In this document: positions 25,675 through 55,466 of the stretch, piece after piece
How positions within the stretch are numbered: the stretch's first letter is position 1
How the letters are laid out: every line of letters starts with the position of its first letter
Source of the DNA: a virus
Taxonomy: Duplodnaviria; Caudoviricetes
Length of the DNA: 64,000 nt
Direction: 5' to 3' (one strand)
Virus record (IMG/VR): IMGVR_UViG_3300031111_000003
Location: 2,165 to 66,164 of that record
Notes under the pieces: generated by a model
Seen by the model: the letters and a program-made list of their open reading frames with translations, nothing else
The model's database searches: none
Told to the model about the DNA's origin: nothing
Program-made: the position numbers and the translations under genes

Positions 25675-26251
25675 AAGGATTATCCTCATTTTGGTTAGTA
25701 GAAAGTCCTTGAATACGATTGAGTTCTTTGCACATTTGACATTGTGCCAAATCAACGTAAAGCAGCCCATGTGGTGGCCCGGCCCAACGGCCTGTCCAGT
25801 TTTCCAATTTATCCACGATCATCTTACCATTGATGATTTCTTTACCACCTGCAAACGATCCAGAACCATGTTCTTCTGCTTCCTGTTTCGTTGTTTCTTT
25901 GGTATGTGGGGGAATGAATACGTAAGCAAACAGTTCATTCTCCATAAACGGATTTCGAAATACTTCCACAATACCCAGGCGTTCCCCGTTCGGTCCAGGC
26001 AGTGGCCCGTCGTAGTAGAAGTGGCCGGGGTGCTCCGGTTGCTTGTCTGTCCAGTCATAGAGGAAGCGGGGTTGTACTGGGGCACAGGCAACCAGATCTT
26101 CGACCACTTCGGCAGCCTTTTCTTCTCTTTTCAAACAGTAGTACTCCTCCAGACAATCCTCCCAAAAATCCTCGCAGGTGTCACAATCTTCATATTGATC
26201 CACATCCTTACCGAATGTGTGACCGAAGGGACACTTTTTCTCGTCAGTCAT
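25661..26251 (-). CDS. hypothetical protein with N-terminal 4-Cys module
   Basis: CPFGHTFGKDVDQYEDCDTCEDFWEDC; GGAGGGAG SD. Confidence 0.6.
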   Translation of the reverse strand: MTDEKKCPFGHTFGKDVDQYEDCDTCEDFWEDCLEEYYCLKREEKAAEVVEDLVACAPVQPRFLYDWTDKQPEHPGHFYYDGPLPGPNGERLGIVEVFRNPFMENELFAYVFIPPHTKETTKQEAEEHGSGSFAGGKEIINGKMIVDKLENWTGRWAGPPHGLLYVDLAQCQMCKELNRIQGLSTNQNEDNPYVDD

Positions 26252-27206
26252 TTTCTCCCTCCATGGCTTCGTTAATGATGATGCGGAGCCGCTTTGGCAG
26301 CTTATTCACCCGCATGTATTCGTCCAGGTTGTGGCGGAAGGATAGCTCCACCTCAAACTCATGTTCCAAAGTTTCCACGAACGCCGAAATGCGTTGCTCT
26401 TGTTGGGACTCCCGTTCCAGGTGTTCCCGGCTGACAGCGTCTCGGTCGAACGGCAACGGCTCGATTACGATGCTGTTATTCTTGGCGTAGTACAGATACA
26501 TGCGGGGATCGTGGTCCACTTGGTCAGCACTGATCCGCATCAGGGAGCCAGGCACCAGAATCTTACGTCCGTTCTTGAAGCTGGTCAGGCTGGGCGTGTG
26601 GTTGTCCCCGGCGACCACGAGGTCATATCCTTTGAACTTGCGAAGCAGGGCCTTATCTGTGGGGGCCACACAGCCTGGCCAGGGGGCCTTGCCTTTGTAG
26701 GTGAAGGTATGGGTCAGGGCCACAATACGAAGTTCTGGTGTGGAATCCCAATCCGTAGGACGTTCAGGCGTTGTTCCCCAAGGCCAGCCTACAATGACAG
26801 CAGAACAATCTGGGAGGAGGACACCTTCTGCCGGACCTAGGATCCTCACCACACCAGCGGCCTCAAGAACACCAAGGGTGGACTTTTCAACCCGGTCCAG
26901 ACGGTGTGCTGGAAGATCGTGCTGTCCGCAGACAACGTATGAATCCGGTGGGAAATATTTGATGAGCCAGCGCAGGAACCACGGTGGATTGTTCCAGCGG
27001 TGTGTGATGTCCCCAGCGACGAAGATGGGAACAGGCTCACGCCATTGGCTGCGGAAGGCTTGGATATATTCCAGCTTGGTCCACATGGCGTGCAGAAACT
27101 CCCCCTCCTGCCTGCACTTTGGTGTGGTCGGCTGGAGGTGGAGGTCCGCGAGAAATATGGCGTCAGGGCGGGGTGGTTGTTCCATCAGCTTGATCTCCCT
27201 GTCCAA
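26244..27206 (-). CDS. SbcD/Mre11-like metallophosphoesterase nuclease
   Basis: DLH, GD, GQHD, H and GDNH motifs; PGSL.R; start uncertain. Confidence 0.88.
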   Translation of the reverse strand: MDREIKLMEQPPRPDAIFLADLHLQPTTPKCRQEGEFLHAMWTKLEYIQAFRSQWREPVPIFVAGDITHRWNNPPWFLRWLIKYFPPDSYVVCGQHDLPAHRLDRVEKSTLGVLEAAGVVRILGPAEGVLLPDCSAVIVGWPWGTTPERPTDWDSTPELRIVALTHTFTYKGKAPWPGCVAPTDKALLRKFKGYDLVVAGDNHTPSLTSFKNGRKILVPGSLMRISADQVDHDPRMYLYYAKNNSIVIEPLPFDRDAVSREHLERESQQEQRISAFVETLEHEFEVELSFRHNLDEYMRVNKLPKRLRIIINEAMEGEND

Positions 27207-27985
27207 GTATAGCTATCACTTGGCCCTGTGGGACAAACGGGGGGCTTGACGTGCTTATGTTTATCAACGGGAACGAGTTTGCCACTCACCAAATTGAATT
27301 CGCCAAAGTACTCTTCGATGGTTGTGGTTTTGGACACGTCATCTAAACGAATGTCCAATTCCCCCTCCGTTTCCACGTTGAGGTGACACATCTCGCTGAC
27401 GATGCCACGATAAAGATTCATCGCAGTTTTTCTGATAGCTGCATCAGGATGTTTATACCCCACGATTTCTAAGGTATAGATGAAGTGAGATACGAAATGG
27501 AGGGTGCAATAATTGAGTTCATTCTCCATATCTTCCCAACTAGCAACATCCTTTTTACGACACATAAATGTATGATTCTTGTCCGCGTTGCCCAAAACCA
27601 CACCCCGAACAAATGCCTCGGCCTGCCCTTTTAATTCGTCCAGCGTATCGGCCTCGAACTCACGCCTGGAAATTGTTTTTCCCAATAGTCGAATGCTAAC
27701 AGAGCCATCCCACTTGGGGCCGTAGTGTGTCTTTGGCGGGTAAAATCGGCTGGACACATCAACTAGTGGTCCATCGAAATCCAGCTTAAACCCACAGTCG
27801 AACGACCACATGGGCTCATACCAGTTCCCGGGATCACCCTTACCCTCGTTCGCTTTGTCTGCCCAAGCGTTTGCCTCGTCATAGGATTTAGGACATCCAG
27901 GAAGCGGATTGCCGCCATTTATAACGACTGTCCCGCGATCGTGTTCAATGATGCCGCCGTTGGTTTGCTTTATCGTATAGGCCAT
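27185..27985 (-). CDS. hypothetical protein (lower GC) between SbcC-N and SbcD
   Basis: TAATG coupling to the SbcC-N stop; GGAGG SD. Confidence 0.6.
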   Translation of the reverse strand: MAYTIKQTNGGIIEHDRGTVVINGGNPLPGCPKSYDEANAWADKANEGKGDPGNWYEPMWSFDCGFKLDFDGPLVDVSSRFYPPKTHYGPKWDGSVSIRLLGKTISRREFEADTLDELKGQAEAFVRGVVLGNADKNHTFMCRKKDVASWEDMENELNYCTLHFVSHFIYTLEIVGYKHPDAAIRKTAMNLYRGIVSEMCHLNVETEGELDIRLDDVSKTTTIEEYFGEFNLVSGKLVPVDKHKHVKPPVCPTGPSDSYTWTGRSS

Positions 27986-28893
27986 TACTTCCTCCTGGAT
28001 CCACACAGTGGACAAATGTTGGGCATTTGTTTCTCGAACCGCTTCTTGGCCTGGGTCAGATCATGTTCAGCGACCTTCACTAAGGCTTGTTTATTCCGCA
28101 CCGAATCGATGGCTCTGGCCAATCGAGATACCTGTTTGGTTATAGCCTTCTTGGCGTCGATGTGATCCTGGATCTGCTGCAGCTTGTCCTTCAGTTGGGA
28201 CAGATCAGGCAGCGTGTCAACCCGCTTTTGCAGCCCTGTGATCTTCGCGACGACACCCGCCAGCTCGTCGAAGGATTTTTTCACCTTGTTCAGCTTGGCC
28301 TGCTTGCGCTGTAACGCCAGCACCTGCTTTTTGAGCTCTGAGAGGTATGAGAATGTGTTCAAGGCCTCTTGTGCGGCCTTTATGGCGTTGTCGGCTTCGG
28401 AAAGTCCCTGTTGGTCCCTACGGACCCGCAAGGAGATATTACGCAGTGCCCTGTCGATATCGTCCAGGTTGGCAAACTCGTTGATGGTGCGGGCCACCTC
28501 CAGTGGGCTCGCTGACAAGAGGAACGGACTGGAGTGCTGTGGGCTGAAGTTGATGTCGCCAATGTTCAGCACCTTCTGCACGTCGTCCGGAACGGACGAG
28601 CCAAACCCTTTGTACTCTTCGTCGTCAATGAGGTACAGATTCTTTGTCTTGGTGCGCCGCCGCTCCACGGTGGTTCCGTTGGCAGTTTTGACTTTGACAC
28701 TGACGGAGCTGGTCCCGTGAGTGATTAACGGATCTACGGACAGGGGTCGGTTGAACACCAACCACTGAAGGGCACGGATAACGGTGGTCTTCCCTGTATC
28801 AGACGGACCGACGATGGCGTTTACACCCTCTGCCAGATCCAAGTGCAGGAATTTGTGCCCCTGGAAGTTCTCGAGTGTGATGGACTTGATCAT
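27985..28893 (-). CDS. SbcC/Rad50 N-terminal half ending in zinc hook
   Basis: I.LENFQ.H, Walker A GPSDTGKT, Q-loop, coiled coil, terminal CPLC. Confidence 0.85.
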   Translation of the reverse strand: MIKSITLENFQGHKFLHLDLAEGVNAIVGPSDTGKTTVIRALQWLVFNRPLSVDPLITHGTSSVSVKVKTANGTTVERRRTKTKNLYLIDDEEYKGFGSSVPDDVQKVLNIGDINFSPQHSSPFLLSASPLEVARTINEFANLDDIDRALRNISLRVRRDQQGLSEADNAIKAAQEALNTFSYLSELKKQVLALQRKQAKLNKVKKSFDELAGVVAKITGLQKRVDTLPDLSQLKDKLQQIQDHIDAKKAITKQVSRLARAIDSVRNKQALVKVAEHDLTQAKKRFEKQMPNICPLCGSRRK

Positions 28894-28904
28894 ACGTTCC
28901 TCTG

Positions 28905-29345
28905 TGAAAAACAAACGAGCTTGGGGAGGCTGGCGGCTGGTGTCTATTCACCTTTGATGGACCCCCGCTAGAGCAGGAGAACACCGCCAGCCTGGCCCGG
29001 AAGGCCATGGGCCTCCACTTACGGGACGCAGTGCGTCTCGCTGGGCCAAAGAGACAAGACCGGGCCAGGCTTGATACTGGCTGGTGCTTTTTGCCGCTGC
29101 GCGCTAGGAGTTTTGCTCCGTTTTCAGCCTAGCTACTTCGCACCGCAGGCGCGCTGATCCCCTCGCGTGTCCTTCCACGCCGCCGGTCCTGTCCCAGTCG
29201 GGGGAGGGTGTGGCCGGGGGGTTGCAACAACCAACCGCATACGCAGCCAGCACCCCGGTTAGATCACACACACCGTCCCCCTGTACGATCCGCAAGCCGT
29301 CTTGCGAGTCGTCCTCAAACTCGTTCCTATTTAGTTGTCAAAGTG
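28905..29345 (-). ncRNA. candidate ~410-nt structured ncRNA/attenuator
   Basis: no credible ORF; ends pair (29312-29325 with 28914-28927); two perfect 10-11 bp internal helices plus several hairpins; boxA-like CTTTGACAACTAAATA at the 5' edge. Confidence 0.55.
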
Positions 29346-29457
29346 GCCGGGGGCCTTGTGCTTTGCCGCTTCATCGCGTTTTGCTCCACGACTTGGCGAC
29401 CCCCGGCCAGGGGTGCCCTGAATTAGAGGGCTGGCATTTGCCGATGCCCAGGTCGGC

Positions 29458-29535
29458 CTAGTGGCCGCCGTGCAGGCCGTCGCCGATGATCAGATTCGCA
29501 TCCAAATTCAACATGTGGTTCATTTGCCATCGCAT
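29458..29535 (-). CDS. 25-aa small peptide MRWQMNHMLNLDANLIIGDGLHGGH
   Basis: AAGGAGGTG SD 6 nt before ATG. Confidence 0.5.
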   Translation of the reverse strand: MRWQMNHMLNLDANLIIGDGLHGGH

Positions 29536-29607
29536 ACACATCACCTCCTTTGGATTGTTTTTTGGGTGGGGGTCTGTGACCCCCACCGGCGTTGCTTGCC
29601 TGCCGTA

Positions 29608-29733
29608 TCAGGCGGTGTGTCTGTGCTGTCCTCCGGCCAGAACGGAGCGCTCATCAGACTGAGGCCAGATCGATGGCAGGCGAAGGAGTAGAATGGGGGT
29701 CGTCCAGATCGCCCCGATCCATTCATACAGCAC
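29608..29733 (-). CDS. 41-aa small peptide MLYEWIGAIWTTPILLLRLPS...
   Basis: AAGGAG SD 8 nt before GTG. Confidence 0.4.
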   Translation of the reverse strand: MLYEWIGAIWTTPILLLRLPSIWPQSDERSVLAGGQHRHTA

Positions 29734-29863
29734 TGCTGTTCTCCTTTTGTCTTTGTGACTCTTGGAGGAGCGGGAGGGCCAGCCGTTCCGGCCCTCCCTT
29801 ACCTCAGATCCTCGGACAGCTCCGGAATGGTGAAGGAGCGGAGCTATCGGCGGGCTGCATTCC

Positions 29864-29892
29864 GTTATTCGCATTCGACTCTAGTAGCGTCA
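29864..29892 (-). promoter_or_regulatory. phage-specific promoter copy (TGACGC-N15-CGAATAAC)
   Basis: one of five copies with identical spacing; upstream of the RNA/peptide locus. Confidence 0.7.
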
Positions 29893-30215
29893 CAGGCTTT
29901 TTTCGCTTCGTCCAATATCTGTAGATGTAAAGAGCAAAGCCGTTCGAGCATGCCATGTTCTTGTAAGTATTGTGCAAGACTGTGTGCTCTCCTTCGGGTT
30001 TGTATATGGCGTACGGCACAAGTTCCCCATGGGATGGCGGTAACGCTCCACGTCCCATCTATTGTTTTATGATAACCAATTTCACCAAAGGAAAACCCGT
30101 TCACCTTTATCATCTCGGGTCCACAATCTCCCTTGACGAAGATGGTGAAGGAGCATTTCTTCGCTTTGGGAGCAATTCGGGAAGGTGCTGGCGGAGGAAC
30201 ACATCTACGTGCCAT
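29865..30215 (-). CDS. hypothetical protein
   Basis: GGAG SD; 116 aa, tightly packed. Confidence 0.55.
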   Translation of the reverse strand: MARRCVPPPAPSRIAPKAKKCSFTIFVKGDCGPEMIKVNGFSFGEIGYHKTIDGTWSVTAIPWGTCAVRHIQTRRRAHSLAQYLQEHGMLERLCSLHLQILDEAKKACDATRVECE

Positions 30216-30546
30216 AGTATGGAATTTCTCCTTCTGGCCCGTGGAACCGGGTCCAGTGGCTGATGAATAAGGCGACGTTCACGAGGGCGTCGAACGCCGC
30301 AGGATCCGCCACGAGTCGAGCTGCATCTTGCCGGGCCACGCGAGCCACCATAACCCAGGGGCGGTTTAATTCGTAGTTCCAGACCAGAATGAGTTCGTCT
30401 GTATCCGGCGGCAGCCGTTTCTCGATTGAAATCCACGCGGAGCAGAGCAGCTCTAATCGAGACCGACGTTGCCGTACTCGGCTGCTGCTACCTCCGCCAA
30501 CCACATGGCGTCCGCTTGGTTGTCGTCTCCGTCCCATGTTGGCCAC
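30205..30546 (-). CDS. DUF551-like protein (start uncertain)
   Basis: WISIEKRLP...SHW pattern. Confidence 0.45.
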   Translation of the reverse strand: MANMGRRRQPSGRHVVGGGSSSRVRQRRSRLELLCSAWISIEKRLPPDTDELILVWNYELNRPWVMVARVARQDAARLVADPAAFDALVNVALFISHWTRFHGPEGEIPYYGT

Positions 30547-30959
30547 TTCTCCTTGGCTGCTTCTATCATGGCCGGCTTGCCAGCGTTTCCTTTTCCTGTT
30601 GCAAATTTCTTGATCGTTCCTACCGGGATAGCGTAGTACGGAACCCCTTGGACTTCACATTCTTGTGTGATTGTAGCGATGATCCCACCGTAGATATGGG
30701 CGGCGTCTACCCCTTTATGTTTGCGTACTTCTTCGTATGCAACGAACAGCGGCTTTGTCAGTAGCAGTAGTTCTCGGAAGTAGGACAGCAGGCGAATGAA
30801 GCGCATACCTCCGCCTTCGTACCGCTTTGGGGCGAGATTCCACGTTCCCACTCCTTCTATGTCGGAGCAGCCGCGGACTGCCCAGCCACACTTCGTGCCT
30901 GGATCTACCGCGACAATACAATGCGTCACTTTCTTCTTGGGTCTTTTGCGTCTGGCCAT
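30453..30959 (-). CDS. RuvC-like Holliday junction resolvase
   Basis: AVDPGT..GWA, YEE, IKKFATGKGNA.K..M and DDN.ADA motifs. Confidence 0.88.
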   Translation of the reverse strand: MARRKRPKKKVTHCIVAVDPGTKCGWAVRGCSDIEGVGTWNLAPKRYEGGGMRFIRLLSYFRELLLLTKPLFVAYEEVRKHKGVDAAHIYGGIIATITQECEVQGVPYYAIPVGTIKKFATGKGNAGKPAMIEAAKEKWPTWDGDDNQADAMWLAEVAAAEYGNVGLD

Positions 30960-32068
30960 TAGAAGCGCCTCTTGCGTCCGAGCTTCATATCTTCCACGAC
31001 TTGGGTCCATGCTTTCTGAACCAAACGCTGAAGCTTTCGCTCCTTGTCATTATTTTCGATGTAGCGGATGAGAGTTTCTCGTTTGAGCTTCTGACGGAAG
31101 TGCTTGGCATTGATCTTCCCCTCCGCCTTCGACCATACTTTTTCTTGCAGGAGAAAGTCGATGTTGGCTCCGACATCGTCCACACCCAGGTCATAGAAAA
31201 TGTCGAACTCCACCGGCCAGCACTTGCCCGTGATCGAATTCTTTTCAAAATCGGCCCGTGTCCGGACACCGGAGGGACGGGCAACCCCACGAACTGTCTT
31301 TTTGTGCGTTTTGATCTTTTTGAGGAGAGGACGGGCATGGCTATAGAAGAACGGAGCTTCTCCGCCGGACGTGACCCACTTCTTGTCAAACGGAGTCCGG
31401 GCCTTCGTATTCTGGCGGAGCTGCTGGATAATGAGCAAGGCCGACTTTGAATTGGACATGCTCGAAGCTATCTGCCGCAGGACTTGGCCCCCGATTTTCG
31501 CTTTCTCCATGTTAAAGCTGCCGGCGATCTTCTTGACTGCCTCGTCTGACTTGGCCGCAGCCAGCGCCTTTCGCATGTCCTTTTCGAGCTCTTCGTCACT
31601 GGTCATAGCGTCGAAGCTGTCCAGAATGTAGATGAAAGGATCCTCCGAATCGCACAAGGTCAGTGCATTGTGTTTGAACAATTGCACCGTGCGGGATGTA
31701 TCCAGCGGCGGCGGTTCTATCCGCTCCGCAAGAGCGTGGCCGAACAGGTACTCCACGTCGAAGGACTGGCGGCGCTCCACATCGTCAAAGATCAGGCGGT
31801 AGTCGTCGAAGGCGGGCAGGGAACTGGCCATCGCCAGACTGGACAAGGCGATGAGTGTTTTGCCTGCGGATGAAACACCGGGCAGTGTAGAGATATTGCC
31901 CAGGGGCCATCCTCCATCAATATGGTCCGTCATGGCAAGATTCAGCAGAGTACATCCGGTGGGCAGGTAGCCGGTGATTTTGTGCTTCTTAAACTTGACC
32001 GGGCTCTTGCTTGTACTTCGTATCTGGTCCACTTCCGAGACACGGGATGGCTTTCGTTTACGCGCCAT
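30959..32068 (-). CDS. RecA/UvsX-like recombinase
   Basis: TG...L..A....GG.P.G, GVSSAGKT, ILDS, I.Q.R and SGG.A..FY motifs. Confidence 0.88.
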   Translation of the reverse strand: MARKRKPSRVSEVDQIRSTSKSPVKFKKHKITGYLPTGCTLLNLAMTDHIDGGWPLGNISTLPGVSSAGKTLIALSSLAMASSLPAFDDYRLIFDDVERRQSFDVEYLFGHALAERIEPPPLDTSRTVQLFKHNALTLCDSEDPFIYILDSFDAMTSDEELEKDMRKALAAAKSDEAVKKIAGSFNMEKAKIGGQVLRQIASSMSNSKSALLIIQQLRQNTKARTPFDKKWVTSGGEAPFFYSHARPLLKKIKTHKKTVRGVARPSGVRTRADFEKNSITGKCWPVEFDIFYDLGVDDVGANIDFLLQEKVWSKAEGKINAKHFRQKLKRETLIRYIENNDKERKLQRLVQKAWTQVVEDMKLGRKRRF

Positions 32069-32261
32069 TGATGAACTCCTTGAACCGTTTCTTGTCTATG
32101 TGGTAGTGTCCACCACTTCCCGGTTGCTTTACCATATCCGGGTATTGTTTTTTCCACTTCTGGAGCCACAAACGGAAGGCGGCCGGTGTCATATAGATGT
32201 TGAGTTTCTCCTCGTACATTTTCTGGGCTTCCGAGGAGTCTATCATATCGCCTTTTTGCAT
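32058..32261 (-). CDS. small putative HTH DNA-binding protein
   Basis: 67 aa; excisionase-like GG.Y.I.K..F..F ending. Confidence 0.45.
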   Translation of the reverse strand: MQKGDMIDSSEAQKMYEEKLNIYMTPAAFRLWLQKWKKQYPDMVKQPGSGGHYHIDKKRFKEFINGA

Positions 32262-32314
32262 TTGTACCTCCGGAAGTGGCCCCGACCCTTGTTTGGGTCG
32301 GGACCGTAGTAGTG

Positions 32315-33553
32315 TTACTTCTTCTTGCGCTTTTTGTTGCTTTTGTTGGCGATGCGGAGGTCGTCACAGTTCTCCCACAGCTCACAGTCGTCGCACTCGT
32401 CGTGCTTGTCTGTGTCTTTGCCGTAGGTGAAGCCGTGTGGGCACTTGCCTTTCTTCCTGGACCTGGACTTGGACTTGGACTTGGATTTGGATTTGGACTT
32501 CTTGGCCTTCCGCTTCGGAGCCGGCTCTTCTTCCTCCTCGTCCTCGTCGTCGTCGTCGGAGTCCTCGTCGTCCTCGTCGCCGTCGTCGGAGTCCTCGTCG
32601 TCCTCGTCCTCGTCGTCCTCGTCCTCGTCGTCCTCGTCCTCGTCGTCCTCGTCCTCGTCGTCCTCGTCCTCGTCGTCCTCGTCCTCGGGGTCGGGCCTGG
32701 ACTTCTTCTTGGATTTGGACTTCTTGCGACGCGGAGGCGTGTCATCATCGTCCTCGTCCTCGTCGTCCTCATCGTCCTCCCCTTCGGGGATTTCGTAGTA
32801 CAAACGATTGAGCTCCTTGTAGGACATGATCTTGAGGACTTCTTCTAGGCAGACAGCCTGGTCCAGAATCTCCTCATCGAGAGGCTCATCCCGCTCGAGG
32901 AAGTCCACCCGGGAGATTTCGAAGAACTCCCGTTTGTTGAACGTCTTCTCCTCGAACAAGCACTGCAGATCGAATCCGTCCTCGTCGGGCAGGAAGTAAC
33001 CGGCCCACAGCTCGTCCCCGTCCTCCAGCCACTTGTCCATCTGCTTGCCGAAGTTGTGGTACGAAACGTCCCACAGCCGCACTTCGTCCCGGCGGAAGTC
33101 GTAGACGTTGTACAGCTCCCGATCCTTGGCACGCTGGGAGCCAATGATCTTCTTGTTGACCTCGTAGTCCTGGCGCAGGCGCTGGATGTCTTCGCAGATC
33201 GGACAGGGCTTGCCGAAGGTTGTCGGACAGATCACCATCCGCTTGTTGGCGCCGATGTTACCGTGGTACTTGTACGGCAGTCGGTACCACATCGATCCCT
33301 TGGGAGCCCGGCCGTTCCCGTTGTCCGGATGATCATCGATGGACACGATATACGGCAAGATGGCGATCTTGCACTTGGGGCGAGGAGAGAACATCTCTCC
33401 ATCGAATGCCAGAGTGCTGGATCCGCTCCTTTCTTTCTGTCGCTCTTTCGCCCTGGCGCGAGCGTTTTCACGCGCCTGTTGTGCTGCGGCCTTGCGGGCG
33501 TTGGCCTTCTTCTTGCCCTTACCGCCCTTGTTACCTTTCTTTGCTCTTGCCAT
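32315..33553 (-). CDS. gp32-like single-stranded DNA-binding protein with long acidic tract and C-terminal 4-Cys module
   Basis: H.....CP..FG.PCPICE, R.LYNV.D; D/E tract; lies between UvsY-like and RecA-like genes. Confidence 0.75.
   Translation of the reverse strand: MARAKKGNKGGKGKKKANARKAAAQQARENARARAKERQKERSGSSTLAFDGEMFSPRPKCKIAILPYIVSIDDHPDNGNGRAPKGSMWYRLPYKYHGNIGANKRMVICPTTFGKPCPICEDIQRLRQDYEVNKKIIGSQRAKDRELYNVYDFRRDEVRLWDVSYHNFGKQMDKWLEDGDELWAGYFLPDEDGFDLQCLFEEKTFNKREFFEISRVDFLERDEPLDEEILDQAVCLEEVLKIMSYKELNRLYYEIPEGEDDEDDEDEDDDDTPPRRKKSKSKKKSRPDPEDEDDEDEDDEDEDDEDEDDEDEDDEDEDDEDSDDGDEDDEDSDDDDEDEEEEEPAPKRKAKKSKSKSKSKSKSRSRKKGKCPHGFTYGKDTDKHDECDDCELWENCDDLRIANKSNKKRKKK
32530..32690 (-). 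repeat. GAC/GAG low-complexity tandem repeat (15-bp period) encoding poly-D/E
   Basis: (TCGTCGTCCTCGTCC)n on the + strand. Confidence 0.9.
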
Positions 33554-35406: not shown

Positions 35407-36804
35407 CTACTGTATTATATACTTTTCAGCAGTATTCCAAGATGAGTCGACCGGTGCCACATCTGCATCAACTTCTAACGGCACAATGATCCACGGCCAC
35501 GCTTCCGGCAGCTCCTTAGTCATAACCCGTTGTGCTGTCTGCAATACGTACTGTGTTTCATCTGGATGGAAGTCAAACAAAATACTGTCGTGAATTTGTC
35601 CCACGATTTTGGTCCGCCAATTCTCTTCGTGCATGATCTGATTCAGTCGGATCAAAGACCACAGCAGCATGTGGAAGGAGGTCCCTTGCACGGGAAAGTT
35701 GATGACCTGATTGTGCCGCATGTGTCCCAGGCAGCGGAACCCGGTCTTGAGATCCACATACCCTCGGCGTTCATACTTAATAATCTGCCGTCTTTTCCAC
35801 TCGGCGTACACCGGGAACCGGTCATACCAGAATCGGTGCTCCACCTCTTCCAAGTGATCCAGGAAGTCGTTGTACGACCGGATGCCTTTCTTGGTCAGAT
35901 GACGCCGCATGGGAACACCTTTTGCCGTCTTGAGCTGCAAAAGGTCTATCTCGTCCCACAGGTCCTGGGCGACTTGGGCAAAGTAACTTCCGTAGAACTC
36001 GGGGAAAACGTATTTGTTTTTGCCGCAGTGCCGCAGCATTTTGTAGATGGGAGATCCTTTCTCCCCCATATCCGCTGTGGACAGTTTGTAGCACTCCATT
36101 GCCATATCTCGGTGCATGTCTCGCTTGGAATTGGTCAGCTCGTCATACATGCCTGGATCTTTGTGATAGCAGTAAGCTGTCCGGATCTCGGCTCCAGAAA
36201 AGTCAACCTCACCAAGCTGGTGCCCGGGTCGGGCCATTATGGCCCTACGGACAATCCGCATGATGTATTCTACCCGCTTGGGGAAGTTCTGTGCGTTTGG
36301 ATCCGAACTGGAGGAGCGGAAGGTGCCCACCCTGGACAGATGGAAAAAGGGATGTAACCGCCAGGATCCATCCGGATATAGTACCGTCTCCCGCATGATT
36401 CGGTCTAGCACCTTCGCGGCTTCCTTAAGTCGGGATAGGCCCACAATATGTTCAACCGCGGGCAGACGTAGAGCTTCCAAAGCCCCCTGGGAAGTGGATG
36501 GATTGCCCTTCTCCGTGAACGTCTTGGCTTTGTACCCAAGCACGTTGTATACGATGTCGGCCATCTGCTCGTTAGAGTCCCAGTTCATTCGCCGGCCGTA
36601 CTTCTTCTTCCACTGCTTGACGAGATCGGTGGAAGCCAGGCGGGAGTGCAGCTTTTTCGTCTGCCTGTCCAGGTGTTTGCGTTTGCGCTGGCAGTACTCC
36701 ACATCAACATGAAGGCCGGCCGCGGTGACCTCGGTCAGCGCTAGGGTTCCATCATGCAAGAATTTATATGCTTGCGGAGTTCGTGGATGCAAAGTGATCG
36801 ACAC
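35407..36804 (-). CDS. family A DNA polymerase, polymerase domain only
   Basis: T.R.SSS.PN.QN.P, motif A DFSGAEIR, motif B R..GKN..VFP.FYG, N.PVQG, motif C QIHDS. Confidence 0.9.
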   Translation of the reverse strand: MSITLHPRTPQAYKFLHDGTLALTEVTAAGLHVDVEYCQRKRKHLDRQTKKLHSRLASTDLVKQWKKKYGRRMNWDSNEQMADIVYNVLGYKAKTFTEKGNPSTSQGALEALRLPAVEHIVGLSRLKEAAKVLDRIMRETVLYPDGSWRLHPFFHLSRVGTFRSSSSDPNAQNFPKRVEYIMRIVRRAIMARPGHQLGEVDFSGAEIRTAYCYHKDPGMYDELTNSKRDMHRDMAMECYKLSTADMGEKGSPIYKMLRHCGKNKYVFPEFYGSYFAQVAQDLWDEIDLLQLKTAKGVPMRRHLTKKGIRSYNDFLDHLEEVEHRFWYDRFPVYAEWKRRQIIKYERRGYVDLKTGFRCLGHMRHNQVINFPVQGTSFHMLLWSLIRLNQIMHEENWRTKIVGQIHDSILFDFHPDETQYVLQTAQRVMTKELPEAWPWIIVPLEVDADVAPVDSSWNTAEKYIIQ

Positions 36805-38053
36805 CGATCAGCTCCATTTGTTTGCGGGCCAGCATCATTTCATAGATGGAGTCAAGCCCGTTGTACGTTAACAGAGTGTTCCAACCATCCTTTTCTTGCA
36901 CCAGCTTGAAGATCTTGTTCTTTGCGTTGGCTCCGTATTTCTTTACATCCTGTGGACTGGAGTGCAGCCAAGTACCCATGTGACTATCGTAGTCGATCAC
37001 ACCAAAGTTGACGTACGTTTGAAATTTGAGGCTGGTGATATATGAGCGGTTGTCTATAATATGTGCCGCTAGTTGAGAATCCCACTGCCATCCCTGTACT
37101 ATTGTTTTGAGATCGTGCCCCGCCCATAGATGTTCAAATCCCATGTTGTGCGCTCCCTTACCCACACTCCAGTCGGAGAGTAAGCGCCGTAGGTGCACTC
37201 TCCGACTCTTGTGTCGTGGCATGGGGAAAGCTATCACATCCAGGTCAGGGGTGCAGATAGAACAAGAAACGATTCGGTGCCCCTTGGCGTACGGGCGAAT
37301 CCCTGTTGTCTCCCAGTCAAATACAAAGAAGGGGGATTGCAGATGGATTCGTTCAAGCTCTTGGTCCAATAGGTTCGGGTTCATGATTTGGCGGATCCGC
37401 TTGGCTTCATCCCCGTATTTGGGAAAAGGTGTCTCAAGTATGGTGCGGACGGCGTTTTCCAGATCCATTTCAAACAGGAGCTGAACGGATGGATCCTTTT
37501 CCGACCGATTGACGTAGGCCGGATGCCAAGTAGGACAAAGCCAACAGCCGAGGTCCTGGTCCGGTATCGTGAAACCCCGCCAGCGTTTGATCGCGTTGAC
37601 TCCCATTTTGTCGCCGATCCAGCGGTGCTGAATAACGGATTTGAGAGCAGGCAGGCCCATGACGATGATGCCACGGGGCTTGAGCCGTTTGATCTCCTTG
37701 AACAAGCGAGGGCGGCAGTATGCTATCTGTTGATCGGTAGGCGTCTTGTTCTTTTCAGGTCGGCAGATGTTAGCGTTGGTTCGCCACAGATCCAAGTCCA
37801 AGTCCAAGCCCATTCGCTCCAGGACCCGAGTCACGGTTCGTCTGGAGCGACCGACAAGTGGCTTCCCAACACGGTCCTCTCGTCCACCGGGCGCTTCCAG
37901 AACCAAGAGAATTCCCTTGCGCCCCTTACCGGCCGTATCCATTTTTGGAGAGAGGCAGTGCTTATACAAGCCACAAGCACCACACCCCGTCGCTTTTTTG
38001 GCAATGTCCACTTTGACCGTGGTCTGGTCCGCGGTGAAGAAGCCCTTGGACAT
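36764..38053 (-). CDS. uracil-DNA-glycosylase family 4-like domain fused to 3'-5' exonuclease (N-terminal polymerase half)
   Basis: C..C.L...C, EAPG..ED..G.P.VG, CRP.....P......C, HPAY; Exo motifs DWETTG, HN..FE, Y...D. Confidence 0.85.
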   Translation of the reverse strand: MSKGFFTADQTTVKVDIAKKATGCGACGLYKHCLSPKMDTAGKGRKGILLVLEAPGGREDRVGKPLVGRSRRTVTRVLERMGLDLDLDLWRTNANICRPEKNKTPTDQQIAYCRPRLFKEIKRLKPRGIIVMGLPALKSVIQHRWIGDKMGVNAIKRWRGFTIPDQDLGCWLCPTWHPAYVNRSEKDPSVQLLFEMDLENAVRTILETPFPKYGDEAKRIRQIMNPNLLDQELERIHLQSPFFVFDWETTGIRPYAKGHRIVSCSICTPDLDVIAFPMPRHKSRRVHLRRLLSDWSVGKGAHNMGFEHLWAGHDLKTIVQGWQWDSQLAAHIIDNRSYITSLKFQTYVNFGVIDYDSHMGTWLHSSPQDVKKYGANAKNKIFKLVQEKDGWNTLLTYNGLDSIYEMMLARKQMELIGVDHFASTNSASI

Positions 38054-39799: not shown

Positions 39800-40714
39800 C
39801 TACAGATGGAATCCGCGCTTTTTGCGCGGGATGTAATTTATCGGGGCGAGGTGGTCCAGGACCAGCTCGAAAAACATGACGTTGACCGCAGCACGGACCA
39901 ACGTGGCTTCAGTCGTTGTAGCTTTGGCCTGCTCCAACGTGACACCCATCCCCAGAGATTCCACCCATTCTGCTACAAGGTCGTGCAGTGTTTTCTGTAG
40001 TGGGCTAAGGGATCGGCATTGCACAGCAGGATTGACTTTGAAGACTCCGAAGGGGGTGAACATACCACCAAACCGGGCTTCCACGTGGGCAGAAGTAGCG
40101 TCGGCACTGAACCAGGGAAACATTGACAGGATCTTAATGTCTTGTATGCCGAAGCCGTGCACTCGGGTTGTTGGATCCACCTGCCAGATCACCGTCCAAC
40201 AGTCGTGCAGCCATTCCTTCAGGCTATACCGGTTGCGAAGCTGGGCGACACCACCAAGTGCGATGTAGTCATAATACTTGGCGTAACGACGCAGGTAGTT
40301 GGCGGGCTCCCCATAGTGGTATGTGGGAATCGGTGTTATGCCGTGATCCTCGACGTACAACTGGTTCTCGTACGTGGCTTGTGCATTCCCGATCACGTCC
40401 AGTCCGGCGAAAGCGTAGATAGCTTTCGTGTTGTCCAACACGAACTGGATGTACTTGTCGAGATCTATCTCCACCCCACTTTTAAACGCGGAGAAGGCGC
40501 CGCTATCTAGGAAGATGTCCCGAACAAAGGGGAGCTCAGGCAGCTTCTTCAATCCGTGGAATGACACGAGAATGTCGATCAGGTGGCCGTCTGGCAGCAA
40601 CGTCTCGAGACCCTTCGCCGATGCCATGTTCGAGTGGAACATCTTGACCGGCTTGCGCGAGTCGTGTCCCTCACGAATGTGATCGATCAGATCTTTGTGG
40701 AACCCGACAGCCAC
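39800..40714 (-). CDS. dpdA: DpdA/TGT-like deazaguanine DNA transglycosylase
   Basis: FLDSGAFSA, LDVIG, IPTYH, IALGG, VHGFG and SADATS motifs of the TGT fold; directly after folE; GTG start inferred. Confidence 0.75.
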   Translation of the reverse strand: MAVGFHKDLIDHIREGHDSRKPVKMFHSNMASAKGLETLLPDGHLIDILVSFHGLKKLPELPFVRDIFLDSGAFSAFKSGVEIDLDKYIQFVLDNTKAIYAFAGLDVIGNAQATYENQLYVEDHGITPIPTYHYGEPANYLRRYAKYYDYIALGGVAQLRNRYSLKEWLHDCWTVIWQVDPTTRVHGFGIQDIKILSMFPWFSADATSAHVEARFGGMFTPFGVFKVNPAVQCRSLSPLQKTLHDLVAEWVESLGMGVTLEQAKATTTEATLVRAAVNVMFFELVLDHLAPINYIPRKKRGFHL

Positions 40715-40716
40715 GA

Positions 40717-41331
40717 CTACTTCCCGATGAGCTGCATGAGCTCGTTGCGCGCGGCCAGACCGTTGGTGTCCTTCTCGCGGAAGACACCCCGCAGAGAACT
40801 GGTGATCATGGTGGAATGTTGTTTGCTGACACCCCGCATCCGCATGCAATAATGCACGGCCTCTATGATGCAGGCGGCTCCTCTCGGCTGGAGGTGCTGC
40901 ATGAGCGCGTCGACGACTTGATCTCCGAGTCGTTCCTGGATCTGGAGACGTCTGGCAAACAAGTCGACAAGCCGAGCGAGCTTGGAGACACCCAAAACCC
41001 GCTTATCAGGCACGTACGCGACATGAGCCTTGCCCACGAACGGAAGCATGTGGTGCTCACACATCGAATACAGTTCGATGTCCTTGAGAACAACGATCTG
41101 GTCATGGCCGTCTCCATCGAAGGTCTTCATCAGGTCCGCCGGATCCTTGCCGTAGCCGGAGAAGATCTCCCGCCAGGAGTTGACGATCCGCTTGGGTGTC
41201 TCCACGAGACCTTCTCGCGTTAGGGGCAGTTCATCTGGGTTCATCTGTTTGAAATCTTCTCCGATGTATCGGAGAAGCCACCCGAGATAGTATTGTGCTT
41301 GAGGCTGGTCTAATTCATTCAAAGGTCTCAT
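40717..41331 (-). CDS. folE: GTP cyclohydrolase I
   Basis: [32 protein letters not shown] and H.CM..RG motifs. Confidence 0.95.
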
Positions 41332-52580: not shown

Positions 52581-52609
52581 GTTATTCGGGACCGTGGATA
52601 GTAGCGTCT
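52581..52609 (-). promoter_or_regulatory. phage-specific promoter copy (AGACGC-N15-CGAATAAC)
   Basis: same spacing; abuts the 3' tail of hammerhead 1. Confidence 0.7.
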
Positions 52610-52672
52610 GCCTACCTTCATCAGGGCCGGGAGGCAATTCCCGACCGACGGGGCCGAAGCCCCGTTTCGGCT
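52608..52672 (-). ncRNA. type II hammerhead ribozyme 1
   Basis: GCC GAAA C GGGGC UUCG GCCCC GUC / GGUCGGGA auugcc UCCCGGCC CUGAUGA A GGU; predicted cut 52647/52646. Confidence 0.85.
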
Positions 52673-53768: not shown

Positions 53769-53803
53769 GGCTCAATCCTCCTTTGTCCAGGTTGGGTTGG
53801 AGT

Positions 53804-53867
53804 AGCCTACCTTCATCAGGGCCGGGAGGCAATTCCCGACCGACGGGGCCGAAGCCCCGTTTCGGTT
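53804..53867 (-). ncRNA. type II hammerhead ribozyme 2 (near-identical to copy 1)
   Basis: same core; starts at the TAA of ORF 53866-54132; predicted cut 53842/53841. Confidence 0.85.
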
Positions 53868-55370: not shown

Positions 55371-55401
55371 TTTGTCCTCCAAAGGGTTACGCTGTTGTCT
55401 G

Positions 55402-55466
55402 TTGACCTACCTCATCAGCGTCAGGCGGTCAGTCCTGGCGGACGGTCCCGTAGGACCGTTTCGGTT
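55402..55466 (-). ncRNA. type II hammerhead ribozyme 3 (divergent stems)
   Basis: ACC GAAA C GGUCC UACG GGACC GUC / CGCCAGG acugaccg CCUGACG CUGAUGA GGU; predicted cut 55441/55440. Confidence 0.85.

Follow-up and report, generated by a model that had tools for sequence, protein, structure and literature searches.

To our knowledge, Nus-factor antitermination in phages is textbook material only for the lambdoid phages, which bring a boxA variant of their own and an N protein, and the lambda leader between nutL and N is reportedly sensitive to RNase III. For rRNA operons, excerpts of PMC10250234 describe boxA as necessary and sufficient for the antitermination complex, state that pre-16S rRNA needs a helix of more than 17 bp, and present a model in which NusB fixes boxA to the polymerase, so that the leader strand stays at the RNA exit until transcription has reached the trailer. 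In phage lambda, as given in the excerpted parts of PMC5725501, nutL lies about 200 nt before N, the intervening leader is highly structured and translation is repressed in a Nus-dependent manner; the lambda-type boxA reads CGCUCUUA (PMC2724277). What is more, excerpts of PMC7862264 state that a boxA placed before long non-coding RNAs improves their transcription. The phage locus described here, which has neither the lambda form of boxA nor rRNA behind it, appears to borrow the rRNA-type transcription machinery of its host.

The window, that is, the whole stretch of 64,000 nucleotides that was analysed, makes up nearly all of a 66,164-bp IMG/VR virus record with direct terminal repeats, whose probable origin is a marine-sediment metagenome. 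The phage is of the siphovirus type, encoding a tape measure and a J-like fibre, and carries further genes for terminase, portal, a split family-B polymerase, clamp, clamp loader, primase, a DnaB-like helicase and an O-like initiator. Its leftward gene block occupies the minus strand from about 55.5 kb to 17.5 kb, and the elements that matter here are the following.

52606-52672, 53801-53867 and 55401-55466, minus strand: three type II hammerhead ribozymes (48.6-49.3 bits, gathering score 37)
30959-32068, minus strand: recA/uvsX-like gene
30453-31010, minus strand: ruvC-like gene
between the ruvC-like gene and the structured region, minus strand: a few weak small ORFs
29410-29870, minus strand: upstream stretch of low coding potential, strongly structured (z -4.43; plus strand z -2.98)
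29458-29535, minus strand: 25-codon ORF with a very strong ribosome-binding site and a positive codon score in frame, the last translated stretch before the untranslated region
28902-28897, with the ATG at 28893-28891, minus strand: ribosome-binding site and start codon of the sbcC N-half, whose residues 2-13 align with homologues
27985-28893, minus strand: sbcC N-half
between the sbcC N-half and the sbcD-like gene, minus strand: separate 276-aa ORF that completes the SbcC region (27185-28893)
26244-27206, minus strand: sbcD-like phosphoesterase

Several observations on this genome stand on their own. The three hammerheads are intergenic in the leftward early operon, the first of them just downstream of the divergent-promoter region, where their probable role is to cleave the polycistronic transcript of that operon; a CUGAUGA at 29657-29651 that recalls a hammerhead was rejected, having neither a matching core nor a covariance-model match. 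The family-B DNA polymerase is split into two minus-strand ORFs (36764-38053 and 35407-36804) that match successive parts of one PHROG profile, and a queuine tRNA-ribosyltransferase (DpdA-like) gene at 39800-40849, also on the minus strand, suggests 7-deazaguanine modification of the phage DNA. Another ORF of 276 aa (31942-32772, minus strand) reads as TRTRT repeats, with an AT skew of -0.41 in 32001-33000, and is probably a wrong frame of the repeat-rich region between a 412-aa gene and recA. As for the host, a search with TerL returned only phage contigs that had been binned into unrelated MAGs.

Upstream of sbcC, translation gives way to a long silent stretch. The minus-strand interval 28894-29457 is closed in all six frames, each of which holds 3-7 stops of mixed type, so that no single codon reassignment opens a frame and both protein coding and alternative genetic codes are ruled out; codon-usage scores over the same interval are negative, with the coding signal absent. 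The sequence-only reading had placed here a candidate structured RNA of about 410 nt, and had named a conserved protein-coding signal as the finding that would speak against it: no such signal is present in the region, and the untranslated stretch is larger than had been noted. The zone may in fact be larger still. Namely, the stretch upstream (29410-29870 / 29587-30240, minus strand) shows little coding signal, its 88-aa and 61-aa ORFs look unlike proteins, the small upstream ORFs have no Pfam or PHROG match, and the non-coding structured zone may come to about 970 nt in all. The last ORF before the untranslated region (29458-29541 on the minus strand, 25-27 codons) may encode a leader peptide or a small protein; its ribosome-binding site can pair with the tail of 16S rRNA over about 11 nt, and upstream of that site stand a perfect hairpin of 10 bp and an A-run.

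The region belongs to no RNA family that we could recognise. On the minus strand, Infernal with Rfam gave no match at the gathering threshold and, at E<=10, four noise matches (E 0.8-6); covariance models of tmRNA, RNase P, group I and II introns, riboswitches and large ornate RNAs likewise found nothing on that strand. ARAGORN was negative, in agreement with the absence of a tRNA or tmRNA signature in the sequence-only reading, and tmRNA identity was rejected, two nonsense calls appearing only at the 70% threshold. Sigma-70 promoter and terminator scans stayed at chance level and produced no promoter-like site, and the minus strand from 28000 to 30500 contains no intrinsic terminator in the sense of a local GC-rich hairpin with a U run. 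The sequencing runs that carry the stretch include no RNA run. What the region does contain, in the order of transcription, is given below.

29345-29408, minus strand: GC-rich hairpin directly 5' of boxA, with an 11-bp stem (29408-29398 / 29355-29345; MFE; inverted repeat I7)
29328-29343, minus strand: boxA core and its 3' extension, identical to rRNA-leader boxA regions of many bacteria
29313-29326, minus strand: P1 leader strand, the 5' strand of a predicted long-range helix, starting 9 nt past the boxA core (MFE; probability 0.97)
29285-29312, minus strand: predicted hairpin A, 4 + 7 bp, which follows boxA (MFE)
29200-29281, minus strand: predicted arm B, long and made of G/C pairs, its 19 bp divided into four segments below a three-way junction (MFE; base-helix probability 0.996)
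29051-29195, minus strand: predicted arm C, a 13-bp stem around a multiloop, with copy B of a repeated motif at 29119-29081 (MFE; probability 0.993)
28994-29047, minus strand: predicted arm D, two hairpins on a 5-bp stem (MFE; probability 0.999)
28927-28993, minus strand: predicted arm E, an 11-bp stem around two hairpins (MFE; probability 0.92)
28913-28926, minus strand: P1 trailer strand, ending 10 nt before the sbcC ribosome-binding site (MFE; probability 0.97)
28907-28915, minus strand: U-rich tract after P1, a weak predicted extension of P1 with the A-rich end of the boxA region (-19.9 vs -19.2 kcal/mol)

The boxA region is the firmest of these elements. It lies on the same strand as all flanking genes, in untranslated sequence, and the window holds no second such site. 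Compared with the gamma-proteobacterial boxA consensus, GYTCTTTAANA (PMC5725501, in excerpt), it is a partial match, and because the published consensus was matched only in part we searched for the exact 16-mer, using one genome per prokaryote species. The 16-mer occurs verbatim at 120 genome loci or more. In 23 of the 120 matches listed it lies in sense orientation beside 16S rRNA, 20 of these at 86-297 nt upstream of the 16S 5' end and 3 in the spacer past the 3' end; this share is a lower bound, since rRNA was recognised by two primer-type motifs. Carriers of such rRNA operons among the matches listed include Zixibacteria, Ignavibacteriales, Verrucomicrobiota, Nitrospirota, deltaproteobacterial lineages and candidate phyla. 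Extended to 19 nt, the sequence is found at 13 genome loci, mostly contig ends of Deltaproteobacteria and Nitrospirota MAGs, as rRNA fragments are, and with one Deltaproteobacteria MAG the identity runs on to 29321, that is, over 23 nt. The rRNA leaders among the matches listed also have a hairpin shortly before boxA, as the phage does. The 16-mer at 29343-29328, which had been described as resembling an rRNA-leader boxA, is located where it was said to be, and these identities make it more than a resemblance: rRNA leaders actually use this boxA sequence.

That said, the three bases before the boxA core are CCA in the phage, and a G stands at position -3 in all 23 rRNA leaders among the matches listed. 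In other words, the consensus G (then Y, U) 5' of the CUUU core is missing from the window, and with it NusB binding may be weak or lost. Two of the genome matches of the 19-mer lie in the 5' UTR of a protein-coding gene and reach its ribosome-binding site, one in a Moraniibacteriota MAG (L330:6281-6305) and one in Lysinibacillus macroides (L214:1787-1805); these genes may be Nus-regulated outside the gamma-proteobacteria.

Just past boxA begins the strand that is predicted to close the region. The sequence-only reading had paired 29325-29312 with 28927-28914 over 13 of 14 positions, including one G-U, and this stem is present as described; in the MFE structure the helix, P1, consists of 11 bp, a 1x1 loop and 2 bp at 29326-29313 / 28926-28913, and encloses 386 nt with five arms. 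When the downstream 417 nt were shuffled 1000 times, 19 of the shuffles reached the duplex energy of P1 (-19.2 kcal/mol), and the geometry may be accidental. The comparison with rRNA is close in one respect. Namely, in four of six rRNA operons that include both 16S ends the trailer clearly complements the 3' part of the boxA 16-mer, so that the leader-trailer helix around 16S begins within that part of the 16-mer, the phage P1 starting just after it. With 13 bp, P1 falls short of the more than 17 bp of pre-16S rRNA, the form extended to about 17 pairs with three mismatches having a probability of 0.10-0.24, and it is short for RNase III. The U-rich tract is, on this analysis, better read as trailer strand facing the A-rich end of boxA than as the tail of a terminator; this pairing matches the rRNA arrangement, since the corresponding part of the rRNA leader pairs with the trailer.

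Folding of the enclosed RNA is well above expectation. The 451 nt from 29345 to 28895 reach -209.2 kcal/mol, compared with -180.3 +/- 6.2 for 100 dinucleotide shuffles (z -4.65), and not one of the 100 folds as well, so that the shuffle comparison, named beforehand as a point at which the idea of a structured RNA could fail, came out in its favour; the complementary plus strand gives z -2.97, and the enclosed 386 nt alone give z -3.99. As a control, 21 tiles of 451 nt on the same strand were folded with 25 shuffles each: 20 of the 21 fold more weakly, the exception at 31900 (z -4.4) being the repeat region, and 18 of 21 lie within z -1.7 to +1.7, the outliers being that tile, the hammerhead region (-3.4) and 46300 (-2.7). 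The predicted fold is one well-defined architecture, in which hairpin A and arms B-E all spring from one junction closed by P1, with mean pair probabilities of 0.97 for P1 and 0.92-0.999 for the arms. The long G/C arm at 29281-29200 noticed earlier reappears as arm B. Of the two overlapping perfect helices in the sequence-only reading, the one of 10 bp (28927-36 / 28984-93, or 11 bp with a terminal U-G) is there as described and overlaps the other; that other, taken to be 11 bp, does exist, with 12 bp (28989-29000 / 29060-29071), and lies outside the predicted fold. We rejected it as a structural part: its ensemble probability is 0.0, forcing it costs 11.4 kcal/mol, and it competes with arms C, D and E.

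The hairpin at 29345-29408 occupies a boxB-like position, as in rRNA leaders, and carries copy A of a bipartite motif whose layout is a 10-mer, 7 or 11 nt, and a 9-mer with a short tail. There are exactly two copies in the window, both on the minus strand, at 29387-29355 (in this hairpin) and at 29119-29081 (in arm C), and the motif may be a protein-binding site. A search for it in viral contigs led nowhere, since all but one of 29 matches are the same unrelated prophage gene start. An internal duplication of the region was likewise considered and discarded, its local alignment score of 41 not rising above that of shuffles (33 +/- 6).

How does this locus compare with the systems outlined at the beginning? 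The rRNA operon leader shares with it a boxA region identical over 16-23 nt, a hairpin before boxA, and a long-range helix just after boxA that encloses highly structured untranslated RNA. It differs in that the phage encloses 386 nt unrelated to 16S or 23S rRNA (no Rfam match), that the phage helix has 13 bp instead of more than 17, that the G of boxA is missing, and that the whole arrangement sits within a protein-coding operon. The lambda nutL-N leader, too, consists of a boxA, a long structured untranslated stretch and then the ribosome-binding site of the first gene of a recombination operon (PMC5725501, in excerpt), and is the closest single precedent, whereas the phage boxA is of the rRNA type and not the lambda CGCUCUUA (PMC2724277), neither a boxB with an N-binding loop nor an N homologue was identified in the phage, and its structured stretch has about double the length and a single long-range helix to close it. 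The boxA sites of CRISPR arrays and of the suhB 5' UTR, according to excerpts of PMC7862264 and PMC5725501, head a ribosome-free stretch prone to Rho termination, as here; those leaders, in contrast to the present one, are short and have no long-range closing helix. Finally, the phage RNA resembles GOLLD, ROOL and phage-borne tmRNA in size class, in multi-arm architecture and in its location in a phage, but it matches no Rfam model beyond noise at E<=10 and is negative in ARAGORN. GOLLD and ROOL are covered by Rfam.

Because of this layout of boxA, leader-trailer helix and structured stretch, we liken the region to the leaders of rRNA and of lambda nutL-N, and propose that it is a Nus-factor antitermination and processing leader of the sbcCD operon with an unusually large structured insert, a reading to which we give about an even chance of being correct. 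Binding of Nus factors, antitermination, tethered folding, cleavage and an effect on sbcCD are all steps that we infer from sequence and geometry. Translation would end at 29458 and leave the next 565 nt free of ribosomes and prone to Rho, a situation for which a boxA at the start is the established answer (PMC7862264 and PMC5725501). The nascent RNA would then form the GC-rich hairpin and expose boxA (29343-29328), at which host NusB/NusE (S10), with NusA, NusG and SuhB, would make the RNA polymerase resistant to termination; so modified, the polymerase could escape Rho-dependent polarity over about 450 nt of strongly folded RNA and proceed into sbcCD. Meanwhile, the polymerase would keep hold of the 5' strand of P1 as the five-arm domain of 386 nt is looped out, and this strand would pair with the trailer as it emerges, closing the domain 10 nt before the sbcC ribosome-binding site. 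Once closed, and possibly then cut in P1 or arm B, the domain would determine where the sbcC message starts and how well it can be translated, in the style of lambda nutL-N. The putative antitermination role is the best-founded part of the earlier interpretation, because the 16-mer is found verbatim in rRNA leaders and stands in sense orientation before a long-range stem; on the whole, that interpretation is partly supported: these identities strongly favour its boxA idea, a processed ncRNA is possible, and an attenuator switch is not supported. The proposal of a leader is weakened by the missing G before boxA, by the shortness of P1 and by the lack of a homologue of the enclosed RNA. As regards the 386-nt domain in particular, the chances that it serves as a spacer or regulator of the leader seem to us evenly poised, and that it is a product to be cut out seems distinctly less probable.

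The best placed of the alternatives, which we regard as possible though on the unlikely side, is that a stable non-coding RNA of about 390-420 nt is itself the product, made by a boxA-modified polymerase, closed by P1, excised and acting in trans, for example as a decoy or scaffold for host proteins, with read-through into sbcCD being incidental. P1 does join the 5' and 3' ends of five well-defined arms, the z of the enclosed RNA fits a structured product, the bipartite motif occurs exactly twice and only in this region, and boxA precedes long non-coding RNAs elsewhere (PMC7862264, in excerpt). A related phage even has an RNA gene at the same place: between ruvC and sbcC, at L028:2764-3153 on the plus strand, lies a permuted two-piece tmRNA (Rfam RF04321, 53.4 bits, with ARAGORN in agreement), the one such case among the 80 related loci scanned with ARAGORN. 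Against this stand the length of P1, which is short for RNase III, the lack of a terminator or promoter of a separate gene in our scans, and the position of the trailer, which abuts the sbcC ribosome-binding site and fits a leader better. The searches for known families and for homologues were also empty. In particular, no homologue of the RNA was found by blastn in 50,697 phage records, by looking for exact 28-mers and 21-mers in contigs of metagenomes, viruses and genomes, in the loci of close SbcC-N relatives in viral and metagenome contigs, by blastn and nhmmer in the 80 related loci, or by tblastx. Since the enclosed RNA has no homologue in the collections searched, its fold has no covariation to support it. 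A more far-reaching form of the same idea, that the five-arm RNA represents a hitherto unseen class of stable RNA in phages, made like rRNA, which would, for example, titrate Nus factors, ribosomal proteins or a defence protein in trans and would use the two motif copies as its protein-binding sites, we consider doubtful.

Could the region instead be a passenger without function? One can imagine that a piece of a host rRNA leader or of another phage's leader was joined to GC-rich palindromic DNA by illegitimate recombination, the fold being a by-product of the repeats; we think this improbable. The occurrence of the region is restricted. In 80 loci from phages that are only distant relatives, with SbcC-N about 30% identical, a recA match lies upstream of sbcC-sbcD in 70, with ruvC also present in 8 of those 70; where the upstream ORF has at least 60 aa, the gap before sbcC amounts to 1 nt at the median and does not exceed 254 nt. 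Nine of the ten largest gaps are unstructured (z -1.3 to +0.5) and the tenth has terminator hairpins, so a structured leader is not a trait of the sbcC family. With the gaps of relatives so small, and the largest of them mostly unstructured, the element is an insertion peculiar to its lineage that the related loci measured lack; we count this in favour of the leader reading too, and it is also what a passenger would look like. The boxA without its invariant 5' G, as if severed at a recombination joint, and the GC-rich short words that recur and can pair in several ways point in the same direction. On the other hand, phage genomes seldom keep 0.5-1 kb of useless DNA, the region has one well-defined structure and not many competing ones, with the better folding on the transcribed strand, and boxA, P1 and the ribosome-binding site come in functional order and orientation; what is more, nothing past boxA matches five MAG genomes or 230 loci in BLAST.

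Variation in the one relative available bears on this question from both sides. The stretch occurs in sequencing runs of its probable source sample and, in a small share, in one marsh run, a metagenome which yields two 151-nt pieces of a related phage at low depth (about 2). From the sbcC start to 28966 the relative has 2 substitutions and a 3-nt insertion at 28927/28926, the junction of arm E and P1; between 28967 and 29033 it has 13 substitutions and 2 indels, which makes it about 20% different where the adjacent coding DNA is nearly identical; and 29034-29066 is identical, so the variation is concentrated in arm D. Divergence of this kind would suit DNA without function, but the flanks (28894-28966 and 29034-29066) are conserved. 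On one read of 130 nt, 4 of the substitutions fall in loops or unpaired bases and 9 in 8 predicted pairs, of which 5 stay canonical (G-C/G-U or U-G/C-G) and 3 break. Compensatory double changes are absent, and the pattern agrees with the fold and supports it weakly, without proving it. A captured and decaying fragment keeps its small share of our belief because boxA lacks its G, P1 is short and the RNA has no homologue in the collections searched.

Still further down is the view that the region acts as DNA, being a replication origin or a hotspot of recombination or cleavage at palindromes in a replication-recombination module, which strikes us as highly unlikely. It does lie between the recA/ruvC and sbcCD genes, has many perfect inverted repeats and contains the motif D1 three times. 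However, the O-like initiator, helicase and primase, 18-20 kb away, mark a likelier place for an origin, regularly spaced iterons and an AT-rich unwinding stretch are absent, the strand asymmetry of folding, which comes from G-U pairs, points to RNA, and the identity of boxA would be left unexplained. As for the attenuator, in which P1 and the U-rich tract would form a long-range intrinsic terminator switched by alternative perfect helices, it is very improbable: the tract does directly follow the P1 trailer strand and two mutually exclusive perfect helices do exist, but the terminator scan has no minus-strand site and no local terminator hairpin precedes the tract, a stem around a 386-nt loop is not a known form of terminator, and the alternative 12-bp helix is not populated, its 5' arm being already paired when the 3' arm is made.

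The proposal of a Nus-factor leader in front of sbcCD gains a wider setting from other phages. In IMG/VR, the boxA 16-mer occurs at 88 loci in 67 distinct contexts (L237-L324), none of them near rRNA, and the G at -3 is present in 40 of the 67. These 40 contexts are intergenic on both strands in 32 cases, and 23 have the start of a same-strand ORF within 350 nt, typically at about 90 nt, from which it follows that boxA of the rRNA type is common in phage operon leaders. Named Bacillus phages of the Bastille group, for instance, carry the 16-mer, unannotated, just after the capsid gene and before the gene that follows it (KU737346.1 40689-40708). In 20 other phage boxA leaders there are local hairpins only and long-range closure is absent; what is unusual in the present phage is the 450-nt distance between boxA and gene together with the long-range closure. 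An unrelated phage (L304) has a promoter-like TTGACA-N17-TATACT, a boxA at position 267 of the oriented locus and a leader that extends to 820; this leader of 553 nt is free of ORFs, folds at z -6.96 and contains a terminator-like hairpin. Taken as sequence matches, these occurrences suggest that host Nus factors are widely used outside the lambdoid phages. A literature search, which was limited and is no proof of absence, found no paper on rRNA-type boxA in non-lambdoid phages.

In the uncultured sediment phage studied here, the form of boxA known from host rRNA is joined to a leader-trailer helix around an orphan structured RNA. If the leader proposal is true, the antitermination and chaperone machinery of rRNA would be hijacked widely among phages, the locus would allow the model of a 'tethered leader strand' in long-range helix formation to be tested naturally with an RNA that is much shorter than 16S, and variants of boxA would offer a sequence handle on the host phylum of uncultured phages.
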